Positions 1 to 10,840 of a stretch of DNA of 10,840 nucleotides are shown here, piece by piece (the first letter of the stretch is position 1; the number at the start of each line of letters is the position of its first letter). The stretch comes from a virus: the UHGV virus genome UHGV-0082263, one strand, 5' to 3'. A model generated the notes under the pieces. That model did no database searches. It was not told where the DNA came from and worked only from the letters and a program-made list of their open reading frames with translations. The position numbers and the translations under genes are program-made.

Positions 1-600
1 ACGGAATAGAGATAACACGAGGAGTGGTTAGAAATGGCTAAAGTTCTGGTGCTTTTACATAGCTAAACACGTACATTCAACTACCTGTTAATAACAGGAC
101 AATATCAGGTGAATCCCTATTCAATTTAAAGGCATTTTCCCAAGTATCTAAGCAGTTTTACACAGATTCTATGCAGTTGGTCACTATCAATATTCCCTCA
201 AAGTGACTATCAAGCTGCTTAACAGTTTTCCATGTGAAAATGTGATGAAGGTTTCTTGAGGTGGGCTTAACAGATGCTATGAAGAAAGTCAATAGATATT
301 TTAAAATTCTGCAAAGGGGGTCACATAGCTGGTGTGACAGGTACTTAGCAGCTACAGACATCTGTCTGATATTTTTGAAGATTCGGGGAAGATGAGATTC
401 AAAGAGGGCTAGTCATTTTTTATAAAAATTTTCAGAGTCTGAAAAGTTACTGTACAGATTTTGCACAATCTTACCAAGCCTCATAGTTGATTCGATTAGA
501 AGCTAATCTCATAGAAAGCTCTGTAGAGAGTTTTAACCCCATTTTTAGGGGTAGTCTATAGGTATGTACCAACCATCTTAAAATAAGGTGGTAAAATCGC

Positions 601-630
601 TTAGAATGCGTTACAGAGCGTCTGAGAAGC
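601..630 (+). repeat. Repeat element E1 (ttagaatgcgttacagagcgtctgagaagc), core CGTTACAGAGCG
   Basis: Its reverse complement (gcttctcagacgctctgtaacgcattctaa) matches 4049-4078 at 27/30 positions: 16 identical, a 4-nt block with 3 mismatches (gtaa vs caat), then 10 identical. Lies in a region with no convincing CDS. Confidence 0.75.
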
Positions 631-749
631 TATATTCACAGATTTTACTAAAGTCTCAGACTTTCTAAGTGGTCTTTTTAACAGGAGGGGTTCCTATGGT
701 CATTATCACCCTCTCTCTCGCTTAGTGAGCTACACAGACCTAGAGAACA

Positions 750-766
750 TGCTCTGTAACGCCTTC
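750..766 (-). repeat. Repeat element E4, partial inverted copy of the E1 core (tgctctgtaacgccttc)
   Basis: Matches the reverse complement of E1 at 15/17 positions, including the 12-mer gctctgtaacgc. With E1 it forms an inverted pair about 120 bp apart. Confidence 0.6.
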
Positions 767-1176
767 ACAAACATTGACTAAGGTCAACTTCATAAACTCA
801 GAGTTAAGTTACCTTGAAAGATTCTACCAAGAAACTACACAGGTGTTATTTAGTCTGACTGTGAAGGGATATTTAACGGGAGAAGAGATACGATATAACC
901 CGAAGGGAGAGTATCATCTTAACAATTATCTTAAGAATAAAACTGAAAAGTTCTTAACAGATGACTACCTAGAAAGAAGGGAACGATAAGACCAGAGGTA
1001 GTGACCTTGTTAAGTAGGTCGTTTCAAAGCCTCTTAAAAGTCTGTTAAGTAAGGTCATATGAACAATCATACCATTTTGTCAAGTGTTTTGTCTTTAGCA
1101 AAAAGTGCTAAACTCAACAAAAAGCACTAAATGCTAAAGAGACGATTAAGAAATATACTAAGAGGGCGCTTCGCTT

Positions 1177-1845
1177 GTGTCACATCCAATAATCAATATC
1201 GGTCGTTATCATGGTGGTTCTGATGACTGGCGTACACCGTATCGTTTATTTCGTAACCTACACCGTGAATTTGGTTTTACGTTAGATGGTGCCGCAACTA
1301 AGCATGACGCATTGCTACCACGGTTCACCGATGATATAAACCGTCAATCATGGGTTGGTGAACGGGTCTTCGTTAACCCGCCGTTTAGCATGGCTGAAAA
1401 GTTCCTCCTAAAAACCCCTGAAGCTGATGTGTGTGTATGTCTGGTTCCGCACAGGTCAAAGACAACTTACTGGCTTCGGTGTGTATATACAAACCCCTTT
1501 CTGCATGAGATTCGAACGTTACACCGAGCAGTCAAATACCTTCCACCAGCAGGGAAGAAAGGTGTTGTAGCGCGTTCACCGTTTGCAAGTTGCGTCCTAA
1601 TATACAGGAACACACCCCGTAAACCGAAGGTTGAAATTACCCAGACAATTTATTGTGGCGACACAATGCTTTTACTTGCCGTGGTTAACAGGGGTGGTTT
1701 ACGTGGAAGACCTCATATACACGATGCACAGACGCTTGACAGGTTGATTAAAATGTATGACCAAGAACAATCCATCAAGAGCATCGCAGAATCGCTAAGA
1801 ATGCCTCTAAGCACCACTTACAGGACTGTTCAAAGGTTGGGCTGA
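1177..1845 (+). CDS. Phage Dam-family DNA N6-adenine methyltransferase with C-terminal resolvase/Hin-like helix-turn-helix
   Basis: 222-aa ORF, GTG start at 1177 with AGAGGG at 1161-1166, stop TGA 1843-1845. Translation has WRTPYRLF near the N-terminus, FTLDGAA, and the catalytic NPPFS motif (D/N-P-P-Y/F), the pattern I recall for phage Dam-type methyltransferases. The last ~35 aa (LDRLIKMYDQEQSIKSIAESLRMPLSTTYRTVQRLG) resemble the Hin/resolvase-type HTH. Recognised from memory, no search run. Confidence 0.8.
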   Translation: MSHPIINIGRYHGGSDDWRTPYRLFRNLHREFGFTLDGAATKHDALLPRFTDDINRQSWVGERVFVNPPFSMAEKFLLKTPEADVCVCLVPHRSKTTYWLRCVYTNPFLHEIRTLHRAVKYLPPAGKKGVVARSPFASCVLIYRNTPRKPKVEITQTIYCGDTMLLLAVVNRGGLRGRPHIHDAQTLDRLIKMYDQEQSIKSIAESLRMPLSTTYRTVQRLG

Positions 1846-2698: not shown

Positions 2699-3253
2699 AT
2701 GAGAGACGCAGAATTTAGAGCGATGCTTCAGGCATCGAGACAACGTAACAAGCACAACTCCTACGCTTACACAAACAACCCAACCAGCTACGAACTACCC
2801 AAGCTCACCAAGAAAGAACGCAAAGGCATTGACGAAGTAATTCGTAGCATTACGCCACGAGACAGATTTATGCCAACCAGAAAGAGCACCCAGAACACTA
2901 TTAAAAATTATCTGGCTAACTTTGATTCTTACGAACAATTACCAAGTAAGATTGAAGATGTAATTATCGGATTCTGTAGAAGTGAAGGCCACCCCAAATA
3001 CAACAGAAAGCTATTTTATCTGCTAAAGAATCTTGATGAAATTAACTCAGCTACCGTGACAAATCATCTTCAGCGTCAAGCAACCAGACTTAGCTACGAA
3101 TTACCAACCGATGCCTATTGTGCATTGCTTGCTGTAATGTGTGCAAAGCTAATTGGTATTGTTGAACATCATATTGCCGTTGGGAATATTGAGCCAATGG
3201 AAAACGAGCAACCAGACTTTGAGTTTGACCCGTATATTTTGGAGGAATTTTAA
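2699..3253 (+). CDS. Hypothetical protein (184 aa), first gene of a four-gene coupled cassette
   Basis: ATG 2699, stop TAA 3251-3253, 1 nt before the ATG of the next gene. SD is weak (GAGAG at 2683-2687). Acidic C-terminus (EPMENEQPDFEFDPYILEEF). No motif recognised. Confidence 0.55.
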   Translation: MRDAEFRAMLQASRQRNKHNSYAYTNNPTSYELPKLTKKERKGIDEVIRSITPRDRFMPTRKSTQNTIKNYLANFDSYEQLPSKIEDVIIGFCRSEGHPKYNRKLFYLLKNLDEINSATVTNHLQRQATRLSYELPTDAYCALLAVMCAKLIGIVEHHIAVGNIEPMENEQPDFEFDPYILEEF

Positions 3254-3254
3254 A

Positions 3255-3542
3255 ATGAAAACCAGACACACACTAACCAGAGTTACAAAGACAGCCTTTG
3301 AAGAACTTAACAAAATTAAGAAGGTTACAGGTCTTTCACATGCAGCAGTGATGAAGCTTGCAATTAACCGTGATATTAACGAGCAGGATTTGCTTAATAG
3401 TCGCTTAGAGGCAGCAAGACACCATATCAGGATTAAGCAAGATGACCTTGATAGTCTGAAATCTTTAAATGCTTTTGGACTGGATTTAGCAAGGTTGCTA
3501 AGCATCAAAATTCACAAGTTAAAGTTAGAGATGGGGGTCTGA
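3255..3542 (+). CDS. Putative ribbon-helix-helix (CopG/Arc-like) DNA-binding protein, 95 aa (tentative)
   Basis: ATG 3255 with GGAGGA at 3241-3246 (8-nt spacing). I chose this start over the track start at 3153, which would overlap the upstream gene by 100 nt. The N-terminus TLTRVTKTAFEELNKIKKVTGLSHAAVMKLAI fits the strand / helix / G-x-S turn / helix pattern of RHH folds. Pattern-level only. Confidence 0.5.
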   Translation: MKTRHTLTRVTKTAFEELNKIKKVTGLSHAAVMKLAINRDINEQDLLNSRLEAARHHIRIKQDDLDSLKSLNAFGLDLARLLSIKIHKLKLEMGV

Positions 3543-3757
3543 TGCTATGCGTTACCTTTGAATACCACACGGATAAAATGATTCGCTACATCTCCGACCT
3601 CCTGATTAAAGGAAACGGATTCGGTGACATCCATAACTCAAAAGATATTTTCATTAAAGCCATTGGCCCAAATGAAGCACTGAAAACAGCAGTTAAACCG
3701 GAATGGTTTGAGCGTCACAAGATTGAATTAGGTTATTGGGGTGAGGAGGTTTTATGA
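3542..3757 (+). CDS. Hypothetical protein (71 aa)
   Basis: ATG 3542 overlaps the upstream TGA (tgATG); G-rich tract at 3533-3537. Its stop overlaps the start of the next gene (ATGA at 3754-3757). No motif recognised. Confidence 0.45.
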   Translation: MLCVTFEYHTDKMIRYISDLLIKGNGFGDIHNSKDIFIKAIGPNEALKTAVKPEWFERHKIELGYWGEEVL

Positions 3758-4041
3758 AACCTTGGCATGAAGATGTTAGACGATATTTTACAGAACACCT
3801 TATCTATGATGAATCCAGTGATTCCCTGTGCTGGTCTGATGGAGAGTCAGTCACGATAAATACCGACGACTACGGCAACAAAACATTTAATATAGGCCGA
3901 TATACTTTCTACGTGAAATATGTTGTCTGGTTCCTTTATCATGGCTATCAATCCAACAAGCAAATTATCCATCGAAATGGTAACAGAGCCGATACCAGAC
4001 CAAAAAATCTTATGCAAGTCCGAGACTTTAAGAGAAATTAG
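3754..4041 (+). CDS. Small HNH endonuclease (HNH_3-like, phage/homing type), 95 aa
   Basis: ATG 3754 with GAGGAGG at 3743-3749, stop TAG 4039-4041. The C-terminal IIHRNGNRADTRPKNL matches the H-x-N-G-N ... D-x-R-x-x-N-L core I recall for the HNH_3/AP2-type family. No search run. Confidence 0.55.
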   Translation: MKPWHEDVRRYFTEHLIYDESSDSLCWSDGESVTINTDDYGNKTFNIGRYTFYVKYVVWFLYHGYQSNKQIIHRNGNRADTRPKNLMQVRDFKRN

Positions 4042-4197: not shown

Positions 4198-4503
4198 ATG
4201 AATTATTCAATGCAAGTTATGGTTGACCAAGAAACTATGAATTGGCTTAATGACCTGAACAGGTCAGGCTTTAATATCTATTTCATGCATTGTTTTGAAG
4301 CATCAACGTATATTGACAAGCATATAATCAACGAAATTAAACTTGGTGACTTTGTTCACAAACTGGAAGTAACAGACCCAGACTACAAGAGATTTATCAC
4401 AAGCGAATGCAACCGACTTGATTTAAGCCCGGAGCAATTATTGAAGCTGAATGTATTCTTAACCTATCAGAATGAATTAAACCCTTACAGTGAGGTGATG
4501 TAA
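4198..4503 (+). CDS. Hypothetical protein (101 aa)
   Basis: ATG 4198 with AAAGGAG at 4181-4187, stop TAA 4501-4503. No motif recognised. Confidence 0.5.
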   Translation: MNYSMQVMVDQETMNWLNDLNRSGFNIYFMHCFEASTYIDKHIINEIKLGDFVHKLEVTDPDYKRFITSECNRLDLSPEQLLKLNVFLTYQNELNPYSEVM

Positions 4504-4604: not shown

Positions 4605-4633
4605 TTGACAAATAACCTTAAGCATGACATAAT
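4605..4633 (+). promoter_or_regulatory. Near-consensus sigma70-type promoter (TTGACA - 17 bp - CATAAT)
   Basis: Perfect -35 TTGACA at 4605-4610, exactly 17-bp spacer, -10 CATAAT at 4628-4633 (5/6 to TATAAT). Predicted start about 4640. First downstream gene with an SD is at 5034. Confidence 0.5.
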
Positions 4634-4642
4634 TTTAATTAT

Positions 4643-4659
4643 AGAGAGAATTTCTCTCT
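4643..4659 (+). promoter_or_regulatory. Perfect palindrome AGAGAGAA-t-TTCTCTCT at the predicted transcript start (operator candidate or 5-prime hairpin)
   Basis: 8-bp arms with a 1-nt centre, beginning about 10 nt after the -10 hexamer. Confidence 0.45.
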
Positions 4660-4808
4660 TATTTCTTTCAACAATTCCATCTACATCTAGGGATAGTTAT
4701 TCTGAAAGGTGCAATGCTTTTCGCTACATGGCCTCTTATATAACCTGAGAGGCTATCTCGAAAAGTCTTTGTTCATTCATTCGTTTGAATCCTTTACAGC
4801 TTTGCCCT

Positions 4809-4836
4809 GATTCATGATTAGGGCTTTCTTTAAGAG
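4809..4836 (+). repeat. Leader direct repeat copy 1 (gattcatgattagggctttctttaagag)
   Basis: About 25/29 identical to 4913-4941. Confidence 0.55.
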
Positions 4837-4912
4837 TTTTTAAACAGAGCTTTTAAAGAAAGTTTTCCTGAAACTTCGTTAACGTTATAAGCAAACCTTC
4901 AAAGCCCTTCAC

Positions 4913-4941
4913 AGATTATGTTTAGGGCTTTTCTTAATAGA
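4913..4941 (+). repeat. Leader direct repeat copy 2 (gattatgtttagggcttttcttaatagag)
   Basis: Direct repeat of 4809-4836. Its 3-prime end overlaps the 13-mer tcttaatagagca (4932-4944), whose perfect reverse complement tgctctattaaga lies at 4993-5005. Confidence 0.55.
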
Positions 4942-4992
4942 GCATCTTTAATAAATCGTTAAGTCATCTTCTAAGTGTATTGGCGTTGAAGG

Positions 4993-5005
4993 TGCTCTAT
5001 TAAGA
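4993..5005 (+). repeat. 13-bp perfect inverted-repeat partner (tgctctattaaga) of 4932-4944
   Basis: Exact reverse complement of 4932-4944, 48 bp away and about 15 nt upstream of the SD (AGAGGA 5021-5026) of the 5034 gene. Confidence 0.6.
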
Positions 5006-5033
5006 AATAACCACACACTTAGAGGAAAAAATA

Positions 5034-5744
5034 ATGACAAACGATATTTACATTAATGGCAAAGTGATTGATAGCTTCGGTGACTGGTCGCCACAGACTG
5101 AACATCCAGCTATCACTATCCAGCGCAAAGAACACGATGAAAGAATTGCACTTGAGCAAGAGTTAAAGATGTCACCAAAGGTAATTTCCTTTGTGTCTCC
5201 TGAGCCTCAAGAGATGCCTGATGTATGCAAAACTGAAGCATTACTTGAGCTTGAGCGTGAATATTACCCACAGTTAAAAGCACAGCGTATTAAACTTGAT
5301 GACGCTTACAGCAAAGTTACCCTGATGCAATCAGCTATTGAGCCGTCAGAATTTGAGATTCAGGATGAATTGTCACAGAAACCATTTGTCTATTACAAAT
5401 ATGAAGACAATGATGGTTTTGGTACTTTTCCTGAGAATATCCCAGACGTGATTAATAATCTTTCTGACGGATATCGAATTGTGAAGATGGTTAAGGCATC
5501 AAGAGGTGCTGGTCAGTTTATCTACATGACCAATAAAAGCGATGAAGAACTCTGTGAAATTGCTAAACAGAACATCTTGGCATCACGTAACAAGCAGCTT
5601 GATAGTGCTAAGTTGTATCTCTCAAGAGAGCTTCAGGCTATGAAAGAGCTTGTGAAAGAATATGAAGATGCTAAGAAGGTTGCTATGCAGGCTGATATTG
5701 AGCAGCTTACGAAGATTTCTCAGAAATATGCAAAGGCTATTTGA
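5034..5744 (+). CDS. Hypothetical protein (236 aa), first gene of the operon containing the tape-measure gene
   Basis: ATG 5034 with AGAGGA at 5021-5026, stop TGA 5742-5744. Acidic, helix-rich C-terminal half. No motif recognised. Confidence 0.6.
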   Translation: MTNDIYINGKVIDSFGDWSPQTEHPAITIQRKEHDERIALEQELKMSPKVISFVSPEPQEMPDVCKTEALLELEREYYPQLKAQRIKLDDAYSKVTLMQSAIEPSEFEIQDELSQKPFVYYKYEDNDGFGTFPENIPDVINNLSDGYRIVKMVKASRGAGQFIYMTNKSDEELCEIAKQNILASRNKQLDSAKLYLSRELQAMKELVKEYEDAKKVAMQADIEQLTKISQKYAKAI

Positions 5745-5752
5745 GGTGATTA

Positions 5753-6169
5753 ATGAGTCCTATTTTTTATATTCTTAGAAAGAAGTTTGATGCTATCGAT
5801 GAGATTACCGGATATCTTCGTGAACGTATTTACGAAGGTGAGTCTCTGGAAGATTTAAAATTTGATGGTCGAGATGACTTAACTTTCCTGATTAGGGATG
5901 TTAATCGGGATATTGAGCGATTAAGAGATAGTTATAATCCACCAGAAATTACTGAAATGATAGACTTTGATGATGGAACAAGAACTATTAGCGTAGCGAT
6001 TGGTGGGAGTTACATCAGGGACTTTACCAGTAAAACTAATGAAGAGTTACTTGCTGAATTTAAAGATGACTATCTAAAAAATCTCGATTCTTATCAGGCA
6101 GAATTAGATAAGCGGTATCGGGATTTAGCTGGAAAAGGCTACTTAATAGAGGAATTGCTGGACTTCTAA
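5753..6169 (+). CDS. Hypothetical acidic protein (138 aa); tail-assembly-chaperone-like by position only
   Basis: ATG 5753 with GAGGTG at 5743-5748. Acidic composition and a position two genes upstream of the tape-measure gene fit a G-type tail assembly chaperone, but no motif supports this. Confidence 0.5.
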   Translation: MSPIFYILRKKFDAIDEITGYLRERIYEGESLEDLKFDGRDDLTFLIRDVNRDIERLRDSYNPPEITEMIDFDDGTRTISVAIGGSYIRDFTSKTNEELLAEFKDDYLKNLDSYQAELDKRYRDLAGKGYLIEELLDF

Positions 6170-6192
6170 TTGAAACTAATGTGAGGTGGTGA

Positions 6193-6411
6193 ATGATTGA
6201 TTTAACAGAACGCTATGAGCTTATTAAAGCAATTAGTGAACGATTGAAAGAACAACCCAACAAACCAAAGCTACGAATTGGAAATCAACGTCGAGTTATC
6301 ACCTCACACAAACCAAAGGTACGTAAGATTCCTTCATGGTGCTTAGATAAATTACCATGTGACGCACAGATTTTAGGTGATGATGGGATGTATTCTTACG
6401 TTTACCATTAA
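6193..6411 (+). CDS. Hypothetical basic protein (72 aa)
   Basis: ATG 6193 with GAGGTGG at 6183-6189. No motif recognised. Confidence 0.45.
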   Translation: MIDLTERYELIKAISERLKEQPNKPKLRIGNQRRVITSHKPKVRKIPSWCLDKLPCDAQILGDDGMYSYVYH

Positions 6412-6454
6412 TTTGAGATTAGCTTCTAATAGAATTGGTTGGGTAAAAATCTAC

Positions 6455-6495
6455 GGGAGAGATTATCGAGTGACATCGGTAGCCCTCCCTTTTTT
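6455..6495 (+). terminator. Possible intrinsic terminator or attenuator hairpin followed by a T6 run
   Basis: GGGAGAG (6455-6461) pairs with CCCTCCC (6483-6489) with one mismatch, then TTTTTT (6490-6495). The 21-nt loop is atypically long, and the site sits inside an apparent operon. Confidence 0.25.
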
Positions 6496-6545
6496 GTATA
6501 TGAGGATAGTCTTCTATCCGAAGTCTATGAGGTGAAATATGAACA

Positions 6546-8717
6546 ATGGCACAGTTTAAAGTTGATGATTTTCTGATTGAGTTAAGTTTTAACTCTCAGA
6601 AAGTTTTAAAAGGTCTGGAAAAAGCCGAGAAACAAACGATGCAGGTAGCATCACGAATTGAGAAGCGATTGAATAAGGCGTTTAAAGTGAATCCTACGCC
6701 TTTAAATGATTCTCTCAAACTAATGGAAAAGAATGTCGATAAAACTGTTTCCAAGATTGAGCAGCGTCTTAAAAACACTAAAGCGTTTAAGATTAAAACT
6801 GAAATTGAGGATACTCTAAAGCCACTTAGACAGCCAAGACAGCCACGAATTAGCGGCAACAGAGCAATCACAGCAGCGCATAGCGTGAATATGTCTAAGC
6901 TTGGTGATATTAATCCGCTGATGGCTAAAATGTTTAAAGCACAGTATTACAGCTTAAGCGGTAAGGCTGGTAATATTGGAAGTGAAAAGTTTAACGCTGA
7001 ACTTGCAATATTAAATCAATCTCTTCGTGAAACGTTGAATAAACTCAGGTCACAGACAAAGACCACCAGCATTAACAATACAAGCGACGCATTTAATAAT
7101 CTTGCAAGCAATGCAATCAAGTTATCTGGTGCATTTTACTCTGTGATGGGTGCTCTTAACGCTTACAAGGCCATCATGAATGCAGGTCTTAAACGAGATT
7201 CCGCACAGAGAGCCGCTAAGTTTGTACTTGGTGATAAAGCATCTGAAGCTGAGGTATTTATTCGAAATTTAGCAGACAAGACAGGTCTTAATATCTCTGA
7301 AGGGCTATCAAGCTACGCTAAGTTTGCAGCAGGTGCTCAGGGTTCTATGTCACAGGAACAGACACAGGAGCTATTTGGTAATGCAACGGCTATGAGTCGC
7401 TTAATGGGGCTTTCTAACGATGAGCTAAACGGCATTTTGAAAGCTTTTGAGCAGATGGCGAGCAAGGGCAAGATTCAGGCTGAAGAGCTTCGTGGACAGT
7501 TGGGTGACCGTATGGCTGGTGCATTTAAGCTATTCGCTGAAGCATTGGGTATGACTGCTACAGAGCTTGATAAAGCGATGAAAGACGGGAAGATTTTAAG
7601 TAGTGATACTCTCCCTAAAGTCGCTAAACAGATGGGCTTGATGATTGATAAAGCGGGTGGCTGGGCTGAAGTCGCTAAGAGCACTCAGACAGCTTTAGGG
7701 AAACTGGCTAACAACTGGGATGATACGATGGTGAAAATCTTCTCAGGTTCACAGGATGAGCTAAACGGCTTCTTATCCAGCCTGAGTAACCTGCTTAGTG
7801 AAATGGGGATGAGTTCTTCTATCGCTGGTGATGCTATCGGTGGACTTATCGACATGCTTAAAGCTGGTGTAGATGACATCCGTATCTTTAACAATCACCT
7901 TGAAGGCTGGATTTTACAGACTAAGAAGTTCTATTACAGCCTTGATGACACTAAACGAAAACTACTTGATGAAGTCGGTGATGGATTTATCAATTTTGTC
8001 AAAGGTCTTGCTATAGCGTTATCTGCAAAGACGCTATTCAGTGCCACTACAGGGATTATGAACCTGACAAGAGCAATCACAACGTTAGGTACAAGAGCTA
8101 ATCAGGTGGCTGGTCAGGTAGCTACTGGTAAAGGTGGTGGAAAACTGAAAGGTGTAGCTGGTGGTGTAGGTAGTGCTCTTGCAATTGGTTATGCTGATGA
8201 CGGTTATGAAACAGCGTTAGCATTAGCTTCAATGATTCCACAAATCAGAGGCGTCACTCTTGGTTTATATGCATTGAAGAAAGCACTGGATTTTATGAAT
8301 CAGGAAGTAGTCAAAAACGCTAATATGCATCCATCTGGGGTAGGTGTGGGTAGTGACTTTAATCCTGTGTATTCTGGTGACCCTAATAAACCGAATATGA
8401 TTAACGAAGGATGGAGTAGAATTTTTAGTTCAATGGGTGAATTGTTTAACAATGCCACAATGAATATTGCAAGATTCAATCATCCAGAATTGATTACCAT
8501 GAAACAAGATGCATCATTAACGAGCACTGACATCCAAAATCTAAGAGATGAAATTAGTGCTTTAAGTAAGCGTATTCAGGAGCCTGTGAAAGTTTCACTT
8601 GGTGGTGAAGTTGCCATTAAACCAGATGAAACCAGCTTTATGACCTTTAGCAGTAATATCTACGACCAATATGCAGAAGCTACGTTATTAAGTTCATCAT
8701 TCCCAGAAGATGATTGA
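6546..8717 (+). CDS. Phage tail tape-measure protein (723 aa)
   Basis: ATG 6546 with GAGGTGA at 6529-6535, stop TGA 8715-8717. The central segment LNGILKAFEQMASKGKIQAEELRGQLGDRMAGAFKLFAEALGMTATELDKAMKDGKILSSDTLPKV matches the conserved tape-measure domain signature as I recall it. Also has a glycine-rich hydrophobic stretch (GKGGGKLKGVAGGVGSALAIGY) and a long helical N-terminal region, both typical of tape-measure proteins. Confidence 0.8.
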   Translation: MAQFKVDDFLIELSFNSQKVLKGLEKAEKQTMQVASRIEKRLNKAFKVNPTPLNDSLKLMEKNVDKTVSKIEQRLKNTKAFKIKTEIEDTLKPLRQPRQPRISGNRAITAAHSVNMSKLGDINPLMAKMFKAQYYSLSGKAGNIGSEKFNAELAILNQSLRETLNKLRSQTKTTSINNTSDAFNNLASNAIKLSGAFYSVMGALNAYKAIMNAGLKRDSAQRAAKFVLGDKASEAEVFIRNLADKTGLNISEGLSSYAKFAAGAQGSMSQEQTQELFGNATAMSRLMGLSNDELNGILKAFEQMASKGKIQAEELRGQLGDRMAGAFKLFAEALGMTATELDKAMKDGKILSSDTLPKVAKQMGLMIDKAGGWAEVAKSTQTALGKLANNWDDTMVKIFSGSQDELNGFLSSLSNLLSEMGMSSSIAGDAIGGLIDMLKAGVDDIRIFNNHLEGWILQTKKFYYSLDDTKRKLLDEVGDGFINFVKGLAIALSAKTLFSATTGIMNLTRAITTLGTRANQVAGQVATGKGGGKLKGVAGGVGSALAIGYADDGYETALALASMIPQIRGVTLGLYALKKALDFMNQEVVKNANMHPSGVGVGSDFNPVYSGDPNKPNMINEGWSRIFSSMGELFNNATMNIARFNHPELITMKQDASLTSTDIQNLRDEISALSKRIQEPVKVSLGGEVAIKPDETSFMTFSSNIYDQYAEATLLSSSFPEDD

Positions 8718-8812
8718 TTTAACGGTGTTCTACGTGAATAAAGCAAAGTTAATACCCACACTGAAAAATAATTTTTACGTAGCTCACGCTTAACAGAGAA
8801 AATACTTATATA

Positions 8813-8856
8813 TCAAAGGCTTGGTTAAAAATGATTAAAATACACTAAGCCTTTGA
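8813..8856 (+). promoter_or_regulatory. 10-bp inverted repeat (tcaaaggctt ... aagcctttga) with 24-nt AT-rich spacer, just upstream of the SD of the 8874 gene
   Basis: Arms at 8813-8822 and 8847-8856 are exact reverse complements; the SD AAAGGAG at 8861-8867 follows. Confidence 0.4.
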
Positions 8857-8873
8857 AATCAAAGGAGAATTTA

Positions 8874-9662
8874 ATGATTTACACTAATCAAATCCGCTAC
8901 AGTGGCAAAGATGGCATCTATTTCCACTTAAGAGATAATGTAGATGCCTTCTTAACCCTATCAGCAACTGAGAACATGGAATTTGATAGTCCTATGCAGG
9001 TAACTACACAGAATATGCAATCAGGGCAAACAGTCACAGATAATGTGCAAAGAGCACCCAGAACAATCACTATTAGTGGTGTCGTCGTAGTTGGCTATGA
9101 AGGGAGCTTATTACTAACTCGTCAAGGCCAATTAGTAGAGAACTTCATCGACACTCTTGAAAGCTGGCGTGACCAGAAGCAGATTATTTCGGTCATCTGT
9201 AAAGATGGTATCAAGATTGATGATTCCATTATTACGAGTTTTAAAGCCTCTAAAGATGTTGGTATTTCAAATGGTCTAAGAATCCAGCTAACTTTTCAGG
9301 AAATTAACTTCAAAGCTGTTGTGGGTCAAACTGATATCTCGGCTGCAACTGGAAAGGCTGCCACTACGAATGATGGTGGTGTGACCAGTAAGAAGAATGC
9401 AGGTAACGTGACCACTGAACGCAATAACGCGCCTATGCTATCGTGCAAAGAGCTAATGAGTATTAGCGATGTATCCGGTTACGCTCCAGCTATCAGAAAT
9501 GATATTCTCGATGCTCAGATTAAGTGTAATAAGGCTTGGAAGCTGGACTATTCAGACTTAACAGAAGCTGAAAAAACCAACGTCACCAATGCTAATAGTA
9601 ACGCTGGTCGAGTAGCTTCAAAGCTTAAAAAGTACTCAGTGAACCCTAATAAAAAATACTAA
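8874..9662 (+). CDS. Hypothetical protein (262 aa); possible tail or baseplate component by position
   Basis: ATG 8874 with AAAGGAG at 8861-8867, preferred over the track TTG start at 8853. Stop TAA 9660-9662 overlaps the stop of the convergent recombinase gene. Sits directly downstream of the tape-measure gene. No motif recognised. Confidence 0.55.
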
Positions 9663-10786
9663 GCGTCCACCTCTTCCATATCACCAGCAGGATAAATCCT
9701 TGTTACTGGTTCACCAAAAATAAGCATATCATCTAATGACTGCATCTCATCGGTTGCTTCTTCAAGCGTTAAGGTGTGGTCATCTTTACCATCAAGAGGA
9801 AAACCACGAATCATATTTCCATTGTGAAGATATATATCCACCAGCTTTTCATTACCAGAAACAACAATCTCTTTCACCAGACGCTTAATGATAATCTGGG
9901 CTTCAGTTCTCCCCTCTACAGACTCCATATCAAGACCGCTTAAATCCAAGCTTGATACAGATTTTACCCTCGCCTTTTCTCGTGATAACTGAACTATCAG
10001 TTCATCTTTTTCTTCCTGTTTAACCCGTAGTGCTTCCTGAATCTGAGTGATGTTAGGAAGCTGTATCAGCGTCTCAGTGAGTTTTTCCAGTTCACCATCA
10101 ACGGTGTTTAATCTTCTTTGTAGTTCATCTAATTTAGCTGTATCGGTAGCTTCATCGTGTAGCTGTGACAGTTTGCTGAACAGACGACTACAAAGCTGTG
10201 TATCAAGTAACTTTCTGGACACTGTACCGTAGCTACAACGGGACTCCTTATTACCATTGCAACGGTAAGTACCTTGATAAACGGGTTTACGTATCCCTGT
10301 AGGAGTCATTACAAGCCCACACTTACAACGGATAAGCCCCTTCAGTATGTTCACATATAGCCAGTGTTCACCGCTGGATGTTTTCCCCTTCCCTGTTTCC
10401 TCTAACAGTTGCTGTACAGCGTAAAACTTAGAATCTGTGACAATCTGAGGATAGAACCCTTCAATTTCTTCACGTAACACTGTTTTACGGTCTTCTGTAG
10501 AAATCTTGGCGGGAAGGTAACCTAATACACTTCGTGAAGTCAGGATGTGTTTAACGCTTAAAGCTGACCAGTTACCATCCGGTTTCTTAGTCTTGGATAT
10601 TCTGACCTTACGCTGATTAATGGTCGGGTAACCTTGTTCGTTTAGCCATTTACAGATAGCAAACATCGACATACCAGAAAGACGCTTGTCATAGATGATA
10701 TTCACCAGTGACGCTTTATCTTCATCAACGATGTAGTGTGAACCGTCTTCTGATAGCTCTAACCATCCGGGGGCTTGCTTACCCAT
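9659..10786 (-). CDS. Large serine recombinase, recombinase-domain + zinc-ribbon + coiled-coil portion (375 aa); N-terminal catalytic domain not in this ORF
   Basis: Translation opens with GKQAPGW...[37 protein letters not shown], which looks like the start of the recombinase domain. It then has [16 protein letters not shown]...[21 protein letters not shown], the four-Cys zinc ribbon typical of large serine recombinases, and a long coiled-coil-like C-terminus. No resolvase catalytic motif is present. An in-frame TGA (10796-10798) lies 3 codons upstream of the ATG and no SD precedes the ATG. Confidence 0.8.
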
Positions 10787-10840
10787 TGCGTATTTTCATG
10801 AAAGGAGATCACTCAATAACTTCCATCGAGATCGGGTAAT

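Follow-up and report, generated by a model that had tools for sequence, protein, structure and literature searches.

The virus genome UHGV-0082263, a stretch of 10,840 nucleotides which is referred to here in its full length as the window, carries at 5034-9662 an operon that encodes a tape-measure protein (TMP) and had been described as lacking any recognisable tail tube, sheath or baseplate gene, and the question raised by this locus is what kind of element would keep a TMP gene in such a setting. An earlier note, made from the sequence alone, had proposed either the edge of a normal tail module with divergent proteins or a satellite or defective element. The five co-directional open reading frames (ORFs) that it listed were confirmed on the plus strand, at 5034-5744 (236 aa), 5753-6169 (138 aa), 6193-6411 (72 aa), 6546-8717 (723 aa) and 8853/8874-9662 (262 aa from the second start). 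Our analysis suggests that the TMP operon serves as a module for tail remodelling in an undescribed family of ~11-kb satellite/defence islands of virulent Ounavirinae, which would resemble the PLEs of Vibrio cholerae in building chimeric tails; we regard this reading as probable, with somewhat more confidence than doubt. The family appears to depend on virulent Felix-O1-like myophages and probably interferes with them.

The borders of the element bear directly on the first of the two earlier proposals. The window begins with a chromosomal flank (1..58, plus strand) that consists of the wrbA upstream region and the first 7 wrbA codons (ATG at 35), so that 35-55, which reads ATGGCTAAAGTTCTGGTGCTT, is the displaced 5' end of wrbA. 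Insertion at this end of the gene is the work of the large serine recombinase that the island encodes. The gene wrbA is a known attachment site of Stx prophages, and the wrbA flank of the window matches the wrbA flank in Stx prophage records at 100%. The attL crossover lies around GTGCTTT|TA (about 49-58). In strain MS 196-1, an intact island (L001) of ~11.2 kb spans from the displaced wrbA 5' end to ~50 bp past the recombinase start, and its attR reads CTAGTGCTTT|ATTATTCC followed by the new wrbA start, with the crossover at GTGCTTT. This attR (L001 19250-19310) brings a new ribosome-binding site and first codons (MSVKARILVLYYS...), re-creating an intact wrbA. The neighbours of the intact island are ordinary chromosomal genes, rutG and ymdF on one side and wrbA, yccJ and agp on the other.

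ORF analysis gave 12 plausible genes in the window, and no sheath, tube, capsid, terminase or lysis gene was found in the ~11-kb island by Pfam, PHROG and NCBIfam scans. The succession of TMP and tube initiator is the normal phage gene order, as it would be if the window had caught the edge of an ordinary complete tail module with the rest lying outside. We give this possibility virtually no credence, since wrbA lies on the left, only the integrase and then wrbA again lie on the right, and no sheath, tube, wedge or fibre genes were found in the window or within 8 kb on either side of intact copies. Inspection of the flanks for capsid and terminase genes, which had been suggested as a check, showed ordinary chromosomal genes only and no head or tail module, and the idea of a module continuing outside the window was thus refuted by an ~11-kb element that has wrbA on both sides and lacks morphogenesis genes.

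The identification of the 723-aa product (6546-8717, plus strand) as a TMP was borne out. It matched PF20155 (TMP_3) with 77.2 bits against a cutoff of 41, TIGR02675 with 58.3 bits (cutoff 21.35; E 7e-16), phrog_4036 with E 9e-90, and gp17 of PDB entry 9NDY, the TMP of phage Bas63, with E 9e-71. The statement that none of the neighbours shows a tail-protein motif stood for the 236-, 138- and 72-aa proteins, for which no tail-protein match was obtained, but not for the 262-aa protein. The latter is a Dit-like tube initiator (8874-9662, plus strand) that matched PF21821 (Dit_like) with 73.2 bits (cutoff 24.2; E 2.7e-20) and chain A of PDB entry 9NDY, the tube initiator gp18 of Felixounavirus Bas63, with E 8.6e-115. 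For this gene the ATG at 8874, which lies behind the better ribosome-binding site AAAGGAG, is a likelier start than the TTG at 8853, which would give 269 aa.

Extended phage similarity of the window was found to Felix-O1-like phages only, which are virulent myophages of 78-90 kb without an integrase. The two island genes have the same order and belong to the same families as gp17 and gp18 of Felixounavirus (Bas63, PDB 9NDY); in the phages, however, they are preceded by the sheath and tube genes and by two chaperone genes (132 and 79 aa) and are followed by the hub, wedge and fibre genes, whereas the island pair stands alone. In the baseplate hub complex of Bas63 the tail tube starts on a hexamer of the tube initiator, which has a tube-like fold, sits on the trimeric hub and sends a C-terminal extension of ~100 residues through the baseplate, and the TMP touches both the hub and the puncturing-apparatus protein with its 25 C-terminal residues (PMC12609058). 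The overall identity between the island TMP and the TMP of Felix-O1-like phages is 32%, and all islands and phages have in common the N-terminal ~47 aa (about 52-56% identical), a core (~71% identity) and the C-terminal motif LLSSS[FY]PE[DE][DE], which reads LLSSSFPEDD in the island and LLSSSYPEEE in the phage. The TMP length in this comparison is 692-725 aa in the islands (723 aa in the window) and 735-743 aa in the phages. The alignments indicate that the island TMP and tube initiator keep those parts which need to fit with phage components and diverge elsewhere.

The TMP is also the fastest-changing gene of the islands, with 34-93% identity among E. coli islands in comparison to mostly 81-92% for the 236-aa protein, as for its neighbours. 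Its whole-gene dN/dS is 0.27-0.34, and the two phage TMPs that were compared are almost identical to each other. An arms race and different helpers are candidate causes for the divergence among the islands.

The tube-initiator gene further bears on how recently islands and phages have met. Its tube-like domain (residues 1-185) is 97-100% identical to the phages in amino acids and 93-95% in nucleotides (pS 0.30; dN/dS 0.13), whereas over the last ~75 residues the identity is 22-50% to the phage protein and 97-100% to the MS 196-1 island. When the window was aligned with that island, the nucleotide identity was 94-100% across 7105-8790 and 98% across 9529-9651 but only 75-87% across 8791-9528, and the segment at 8941-9390 showed 93-95% nucleotide identity to phages ECOH1 and SapYZU01. 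These ~500 bp at 8941-9390 are a patch of recombination between island and phage, from which it follows that the two encounter each other in the same cells. Being recent and phage-derived, the patch points to a current interaction of the islands with the phages. The intergenic gap between the TMP and tube-initiator genes is 156 nt in the window versus 0-18 nt in the phages.

Another resemblance to the same phages was found in the left arm (56-1176), which is non-coding and in which two blocks resemble the single large non-coding region of Felixounaviruses. These phages package their DNA with direct terminal repeats (DTR), and the repeat of Pr103Blw is 581 bp long (PMC8303462). Box A (246-469, plus strand), a ~200-bp block kept in four diverged islands, is homologous to the Felixounavirus region that straddles the internal DTR boundary (Pr103Blw 485-706, and UAB_69; pairwise E 4e-11 to 8e-18). 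Box B (954-1029, plus strand) is homologous to a segment inside the DTR (Pr103Blw 245-318), with 78-87% identity to the phages and E 3e-8; in a search of window positions 1-1180 against a 2.3-Gb phage collection, all matches listed, apart from those to the wrbA flank at 1-55, were to box B in Felix-O1-like phages of E. coli and Salmonella. The DTR was annotated independently in two records (Pr103Blw 1-581; UAB_69 14626-15243), and the annotated ends of both phages coincide within 2 nt in the alignment, at GGGCTACC(AA)|GCAG. The islands have GGTACTTAGCAG in those columns, and the boundary equivalent of the window is near 342-347. Across the phages and islands aligned, G.TAC..AGCAG at the DTR boundary is invariant, and so are the flanks of this motif, GATATTT..TGCAAAG upstream and GATATTTT downstream. 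To be cut and packaged by the terminase of a helper, an element that has none of its own would require a copy of the genome end, and we infer that this would be the use of box A. Judged from its gene content, the island has the make-up of a satellite, i.e., an integrative element without capsid, terminase and lysis genes but with phage-related genes and with what appears to be a cis copy of the genome-end site.

Some further features of the non-coding DNA were noted. A 16-nt inverted repeat, GAATGCGTTACAGAGC / GCTCTGTAACGCCTTC, lies in the left arm at 604-619 / 751-766 with its arms ~130 nt apart, and the same repeat is kept in a diverged island in another E. coli (L007, 5080-5095 / 5224-5239); it could be a protein-binding site or an origin. 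The non-coding region of a Felixounavirus (L006 2287-3956) contains dense CTGTTAA / CTTGTTA repeats with 11-bp spacing, and 8 of the 20 YTGTTAR sites of the window fall in its first 1050 bases.

Whether the module works or decays can be judged from its relatives. The order of the 236-aa gene, the ~69-aa gene, the TMP gene, the tube-initiator gene and the convergent recombinase gene is intact in at least 10 diverged islands at no fewer than three integration sites, which include wrbA, yciI/tonB (L007) and opgH/msyB/mdtG (L008, an enterobacterial contig in which the homologue of the 236-aa protein is only 37% identical). The known range of this gene order is Escherichia and that one enterobacterial contig. 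The left half of an island consists of the non-coding arm with a small resolvase or other cargo, the 184-aa gene, a ~95-aa gene, small genes that usually include an HNH endonuclease, and a variable ~100-aa gene, while the right half consists of a promoter with a leader, the 236-aa, ~69-aa, TMP and tube-initiator genes, and the convergent large serine recombinase. The chromosome of E. coli TUM1886, which bears two extra insertion sequence (IS) elements, shares 99.8% identity with the window, and the islands of many other strains share 88-93%. Matches to 5034-9662 were found in 478 of 5426 complete E. coli genomes (~9%), all of them chromosomal, at up to 4 places per genome and with very mosaic coverage. 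The intact recombinase homologues are 502-507 aa long, with Resolvase, Recombinase and Zn_ribbon domains; they are full length in 7 of the 8 loci with the whole right arm and are 26-33% identical between integration sites. One architecture found at several sites, each with a different recombinase, argues for horizontal mobility of the family.

None of the module ORFs was disrupted in the 8 loci with a complete module (9 loci for the TMP gene), and in the 8 loci with the whole right arm the lengths were 235-250 aa for the 236-aa gene, 62-72 aa for the ~69-aa gene, 682-725 aa for the TMP gene and 253-269 aa for the tube-initiator gene. Gaps and short ORFs in other loci coincided with contig ends or IS insertions. 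The dN/dS values of the module were 0.12-0.34. Purifying selection and intact ORFs in diverged islands support the view that the module genes are functional and not decaying.

These results also bear on the possibility that the locus is what is left of a decaying prophage or other element of phage origin, in which the TMP gene and one baseplate gene were retained by chance. Such a history would agree with the IS insertions and the broken integrase of the window copy and of several others, and with the 138-aa ORFan and the variable cargo genes, which look like flux. It would not account for the closest phages being virulent, with genomes of 86-90 kb and no integrase, for the conservation of an 11-kb gene order at three or more sites including the contig with the 37% identical protein, for ORFs that remain intact under the dN/dS values given above, or for the recent phage-derived patch, which speaks for a current phage interaction; we therefore consider it very improbable. 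The second proposal of the earlier note thus survives in its satellite form, whereas its defective-remnant form is opposed by virulent, integrase-less relatives and by an intact module under purifying selection.

The systems closest in design to the islands are the PLEs of Vibrio cholerae, satellites of the virulent myophage ICP1 that carry a large serine recombinase and were found in 2026 to replace the TMP, chaperone and baseplate hub proteins of the phage by their own, giving chimeric tails; PLE11 adds an 80-aa inhibitor of the phage TMP, Rta (PMC12987554). The same work notes that other Vibrio elements and some cf-PICIs have putative tmp genes, and does not mention Felix-O1-like phages (PMC12987554). 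Similar to the PLEs, the island is a small chromosomal element with a large serine recombinase and a virulent myophage partner, and it has its own TMP and its own protein of the baseplate-hub region, both diverged from those of the phage, together with small genes in the chaperone position. The proposed outcome, chimeric tails and interference with phage tail assembly, is also the same, for an island that is known here from sequence alone. The differences are that the island occurs in Enterobacteriaceae, with Ounavirinae and not ICP1 as helper, and is ~11 kb long in comparison to ~18 kb; that the TAC of the PLEs resembles the TAC of HK97 (PDB 5IR0 / 2OB9), whereas no chaperone-like fold or sequence was detected in the island; and that the BhuB of the PLEs is 41% identical to that of ICP1, whereas the N-domain of the island tube initiator is about 98% identical to the phage protein. 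Since size, host and helper differ, and the two were compared by description and not by gene homology, we did not file the island as a PLE. In the literature searched, no paper tied Felix-O1-like phages or Ounavirinae to satellites or mentioned the island proteins.

With P4 and the cos-type PICIs the island shares the lack of its own terminase and a short, putatively cis-acting copy of the genome-end or packaging sequence of the helper. The helpers of those satellites, however, are temperate cos phages, while the site that appears to be mimicked in the island is a DTR boundary. None of the markers of P4-like elements, PICIs or cf-PICIs (sid/psu/delta/alpha; alpA, pri-rep, terS; capsid genes) was found among the island ORFs by Pfam, PHROG and NCBIfam, and because these marker genes are absent the island is not P4-like, a PICI or a cf-PICI. 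The Tai/Tab and Rta defences would act at the same step as the island, namely tail assembly around the TMP and the baseplate hub; they are small non-structural inhibitors, in contrast to the candidate effectors of the island, which are full-length structural homologues. The 72-aa protein is near Rta (80 aa) in size, a likeness of size only.

A course of events may be proposed on these grounds. Infection by a helper phage would switch the island on, perhaps via read-through of its terminator-rich leader, and the island would then excise and be copied. The phage terminase would cut and package it at the mimicked end site, and the island would exit in phage capsids on chimeric tails that contain its own TMP and tube initiator. 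Since island tails would compete with normal phage tail assembly, the bacterial population might also be protected.

The last consequence could also be the whole function of the locus. As a pure anti-phage defence island, not mobilised by phages and spread by other routes, it would use its TMP and tube-initiator variants as dominant-negative decoys that poison Felix-O1-like tail assembly, and its DTR-like block as a decoy or sensor of the terminase. Interference with tail assembly is an established defence strategy (Tai/Tab, Rta; PMC12987554), a tube initiator with a phage-identical tube domain and a foreign C-terminal extension looks as a poison subunit would be expected to look, the fast diversification of the TMP fits an arms race, and no replication or packaging genes were recognised. 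A decoy, on the other hand, needs neither a full-length TMP of near-phage length with both termini nor an exact phage genome-end motif kept in every island; the family has its own integrase with several site specificities, which speaks for horizontal mobility, and no PADLOC model matches. We therefore judge a purely defensive island to be rather unlikely, though deserving of serious attention, and the PLEs, which combine defence with hitch-hiking, illustrate that it overlaps the tail-remodelling satellite that we prefer.

Several observations weigh against the tail-remodelling satellite. Induction, excision, replication, packaging and transfer are proposed from sequence comparison. An 11-kb unit is ~1/8 of the 86-90-kb phage genome, and how a capsid would be filled is not explained; family scans of the island ORFs recognised neither a replication initiator nor a small terminase nor a capsid-size factor. 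What the island mimics is limited to the internal DTR boundary and one inner segment, a copy of the other boundary not having been found, and its boxes stand in the order A then B, opposite to the phage order. The extreme diversity of the TMP among the islands is not explained by simple helper matching, the 184-, 236-, 138- and 72-aa proteins gave no assignable function in family and structure searches, and several copies, including that of the window, are broken by IS elements. In addition, the UViG names of the IMG/VR matches suggest that these are prophages predicted in isolate genomes and not particle data; the scan of genome contigs for virome evidence found just 2 loci.

For a broader statement the chances seem to us about even. 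According to it, the islands are a satellite family of virulent Ounavirinae, the first of its kind, and are common across E. coli, Shigella, Salmonella and Citrobacter; they would have converged on the PLE strategy, with their own TMP and tube initiator for chimeric tails and a borrowed terminal-repeat boundary for packaging, and their TMP genes would diversify at a much higher rate than the phage genes. The view held until 2026 was that satellites adopt the tails of phages unaltered, and the Vibrio PLEs are the sole family shown to build chimeric tails. If the satellite reading is true, the occurrence in ~9% of complete E. coli genomes of a family of islands unrelated to the PLEs would make tail remodelling a general satellite strategy, and E. 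coli/Salmonella would offer a tractable model in which the structure of the helper virion (Bas63) is solved. It would matter for phage therapy and biocontrol as well, in which Felix-O1-like phages find wide use against E. coli and Salmonella, because the islands could restrict these phages or use them to spread. The misleading annotations 'transposase' and 'phage baseplate protein', carried by thousands of genes, would likewise be put right.

The small genes upstream of the TMP gene were considered as possible assembly factors. The 236-aa core protein (5034-5744, plus strand) had no Pfam, PHROG, NCBIfam or PADLOC match, and an exhaustive HMMER search of 1.84 billion representative proteins gave about five diverged full-length relatives, one of which (P0129) was looked up and sits in the same gene context. 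An AlphaFold model from 12 sequences (pLDDT 79) predicts a long hairpin, an antiparallel coiled coil whose tip bears a small alpha/beta domain; the matches of this model were confined to generic coiled coils (MukB elbow, prefoldin, Rad50), and BFVD gave none. The name 'transposase' given to the protein by NCBI/RefSeq was rejected, since no Pfam or NCBIfam model supports it; RefSeq uses it for thousands of copies, and it looks like a propagated annotation error. The 138-aa protein (5753-6169, plus strand) is an accessory ORFan of a minority of the islands, with near-identical homologues in E. coli only; its gene is missing from L001, L007 and L008 and absent in most islands. A comparison with the tip domain of the 236-aa family (hhalign E 0.014) gives a weak hint that it may be a truncated paralogue of the 236-aa protein, and its AF2 single-sequence model (pLDDT 43) was unusable. 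The 72-aa core protein (6193-6411, plus strand) is encoded immediately 5' of the TMP gene and is 62-72 aa long in all islands; in an alignment of 10 islands it shows an N-terminal helix, a basic linker and the conserved C-terminal motif KWC(I/L)D(K/R)(I/L)PSDxQI(I/V)GE.

The 138- and 72-aa ORFs (5753-6411) occupy the place that the 132- and 79-aa chaperone genes have 5' of the TMP gene in the phages, a correspondence of position only, and by position the 236-, 138- and 72-aa proteins are candidates for a chaperone or capsid/tail assembly role, the 236-aa protein for that of a TMP chaperone. No similarity of the three to the Felixounavirus chaperones was found by BLASTP or hhalign, and profile searches of the PDB matched them to no solved protein, the chaperones 5IR0 and 2OB9 included. 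Of the remote homologies that the earlier note had suggested looking for among the neighbours, that of the 262-aa protein to a tube initiator was thus obtained, and those of the other three to chaperones or tail proteins were not. The programmed frameshift that had been suspected at the end of the 138-aa gene is absent as well; a G/GT-type fusion of the 138- and 72-aa genes was rejected because the -1 frame stops at the TGA at 6190-6192, before the ATG at 6193, and no canonical slippery heptamer was found at the end of the 138-aa gene. It is unlikely that a +1 shift extends the 72-aa ORF into 6377-6535, since L008 has only ~70 nt before the TMP gene.

The regulatory region that had been placed upstream of the operon was found at 4605-5033 (plus strand), where a promoter (4605-4633) is followed by a highly structured leader of 400 nt. 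The promoter matches 11 of 12 sigma-70 consensus positions and has an extended -10 (TG). The minimum free energy of the leader RNA is -124 kcal/mol in comparison to -78.9 +/- 5.0 for shuffled sequences (z -8.96), and the leader contains three or more terminator-like hairpins with U-tracts, among them those at 4643-4659, 4804-4824 and about 4902-4927 and a perfect ~21-bp hairpin just 5' of the ribosome-binding site of the 236-aa gene. Its consensus structure is kept in 4 variants, which are too similar for much covariation. Ahead of the TMP gene, at 6455-6535 (plus strand), there is another terminator-like hairpin (GGGAG..CTCCC + T6), followed by a 39-nt hairpin box at 6497-6535. Such an arrangement suggests that the tail module may be controlled by termination and read-through.

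The 39-nt box with its hairpin GGATAGtcttCTATCC is also found directly after the leader promoter in other islands (L001 12967-13005), and at that spot the window has a different hairpin instead (AGAGAGAatttCTCTCT). An antisense RNA similar to SviR was rejected, as the leader and the other non-coding stretches show no complementarity to the ECOH1 genome above shuffled controls; the one match in this comparison was that of the left arm, in sense orientation, to the DTR region. Rfam and tRNA scans gave nothing.

As the earlier note had claimed, a serine recombinase gene lies convergent to the operon (9659-10786, minus strand), with its stop codon TAG at 9659-9661 overlapping the TAA at 9660-9662 of the tube-initiator gene; what is present, however, is only a fragment for the C-terminal 375 aa, with the Recombinase and Zn_ribbon domains. 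The fragment lacks the catalytic Resolvase domain, since the gene is interrupted by an IS21-family element (ISEc12 in TUM1886), the end of which occupies 10787-10840. Homology to the intact islands stops at 10786, 10770-10840 matches hundreds of plasmids, and in TUM1886 istA/istB are annotated beside the recombinase fragment. With the catalytic domain removed by the IS element, the window copy is probably crippled for excision and immobile. The tube-initiator gene of strain TUM1886 is also cut by an IS3 element, and many other copies of the island are heavily loaded with IS elements.

The remaining genes of the window lie in the left half of the island. The 184-aa core protein (2699-3253, plus strand), which is specific to this family of islands, is conserved in L001, L007 and L008 and had no Pfam, NCBIfam or PADLOC match. 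Its homologues form 1084 clusters; among the 120 listed, the names given are those of E. coli, Shigella, Salmonella, Citrobacter, E. albertii and E. fergusonii. The four genera represented there were also recorded as hosts of Felix-O1-like phages in the phage searches. The gene is preceded by a divergent promoter-like pair at 2581-2647, 5' of the early operon, which consists of consensus matches only (TTGACA-17-TAGTAT with TG on the plus strand; GTAACA-18-TATAAT with TG on the minus strand). Three small early genes follow at 3255-4041 (plus strand; 95, 71 and 95 aa), the first of which had sub-threshold matches only and may possibly encode a DNA-binding protein, and the last of which (3754-4041) encodes an HNH endonuclease (PF13392 HNH_3, E 1.8e-8). 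A small terminase in a 129-aa reading of 3153-3542 was not accepted, as the P27-family match was sub-threshold (E 2.9e-4, 20.8 bits against a cutoff of 45.6).

At the variable cargo position, 1177-1845 (plus strand) encodes a Dam-type N6-adenine methyltransferase (PF05869, E 4e-13) fused to a resolvase-type helix-turn-helix (HTH_7/HTH_23 at residues 177-220). PADLOC recognised no known defence system on the island and reported the orphan methyltransferase only. An invertible switch beside the small resolvase was rejected, as no convincing long inverted repeats were found. In most sister islands the same arm carries a 182-aa resolvase/invertase (L001 8582-9130), and the difference looks like a domain swap at the cargo position. 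The 101-aa gene at 4198-4503 (plus strand) is likewise variable, with an identity of 25-27% to its counterparts in L001 and L007, 55% to that in L008, and 95-100% to those in L020 and L022.

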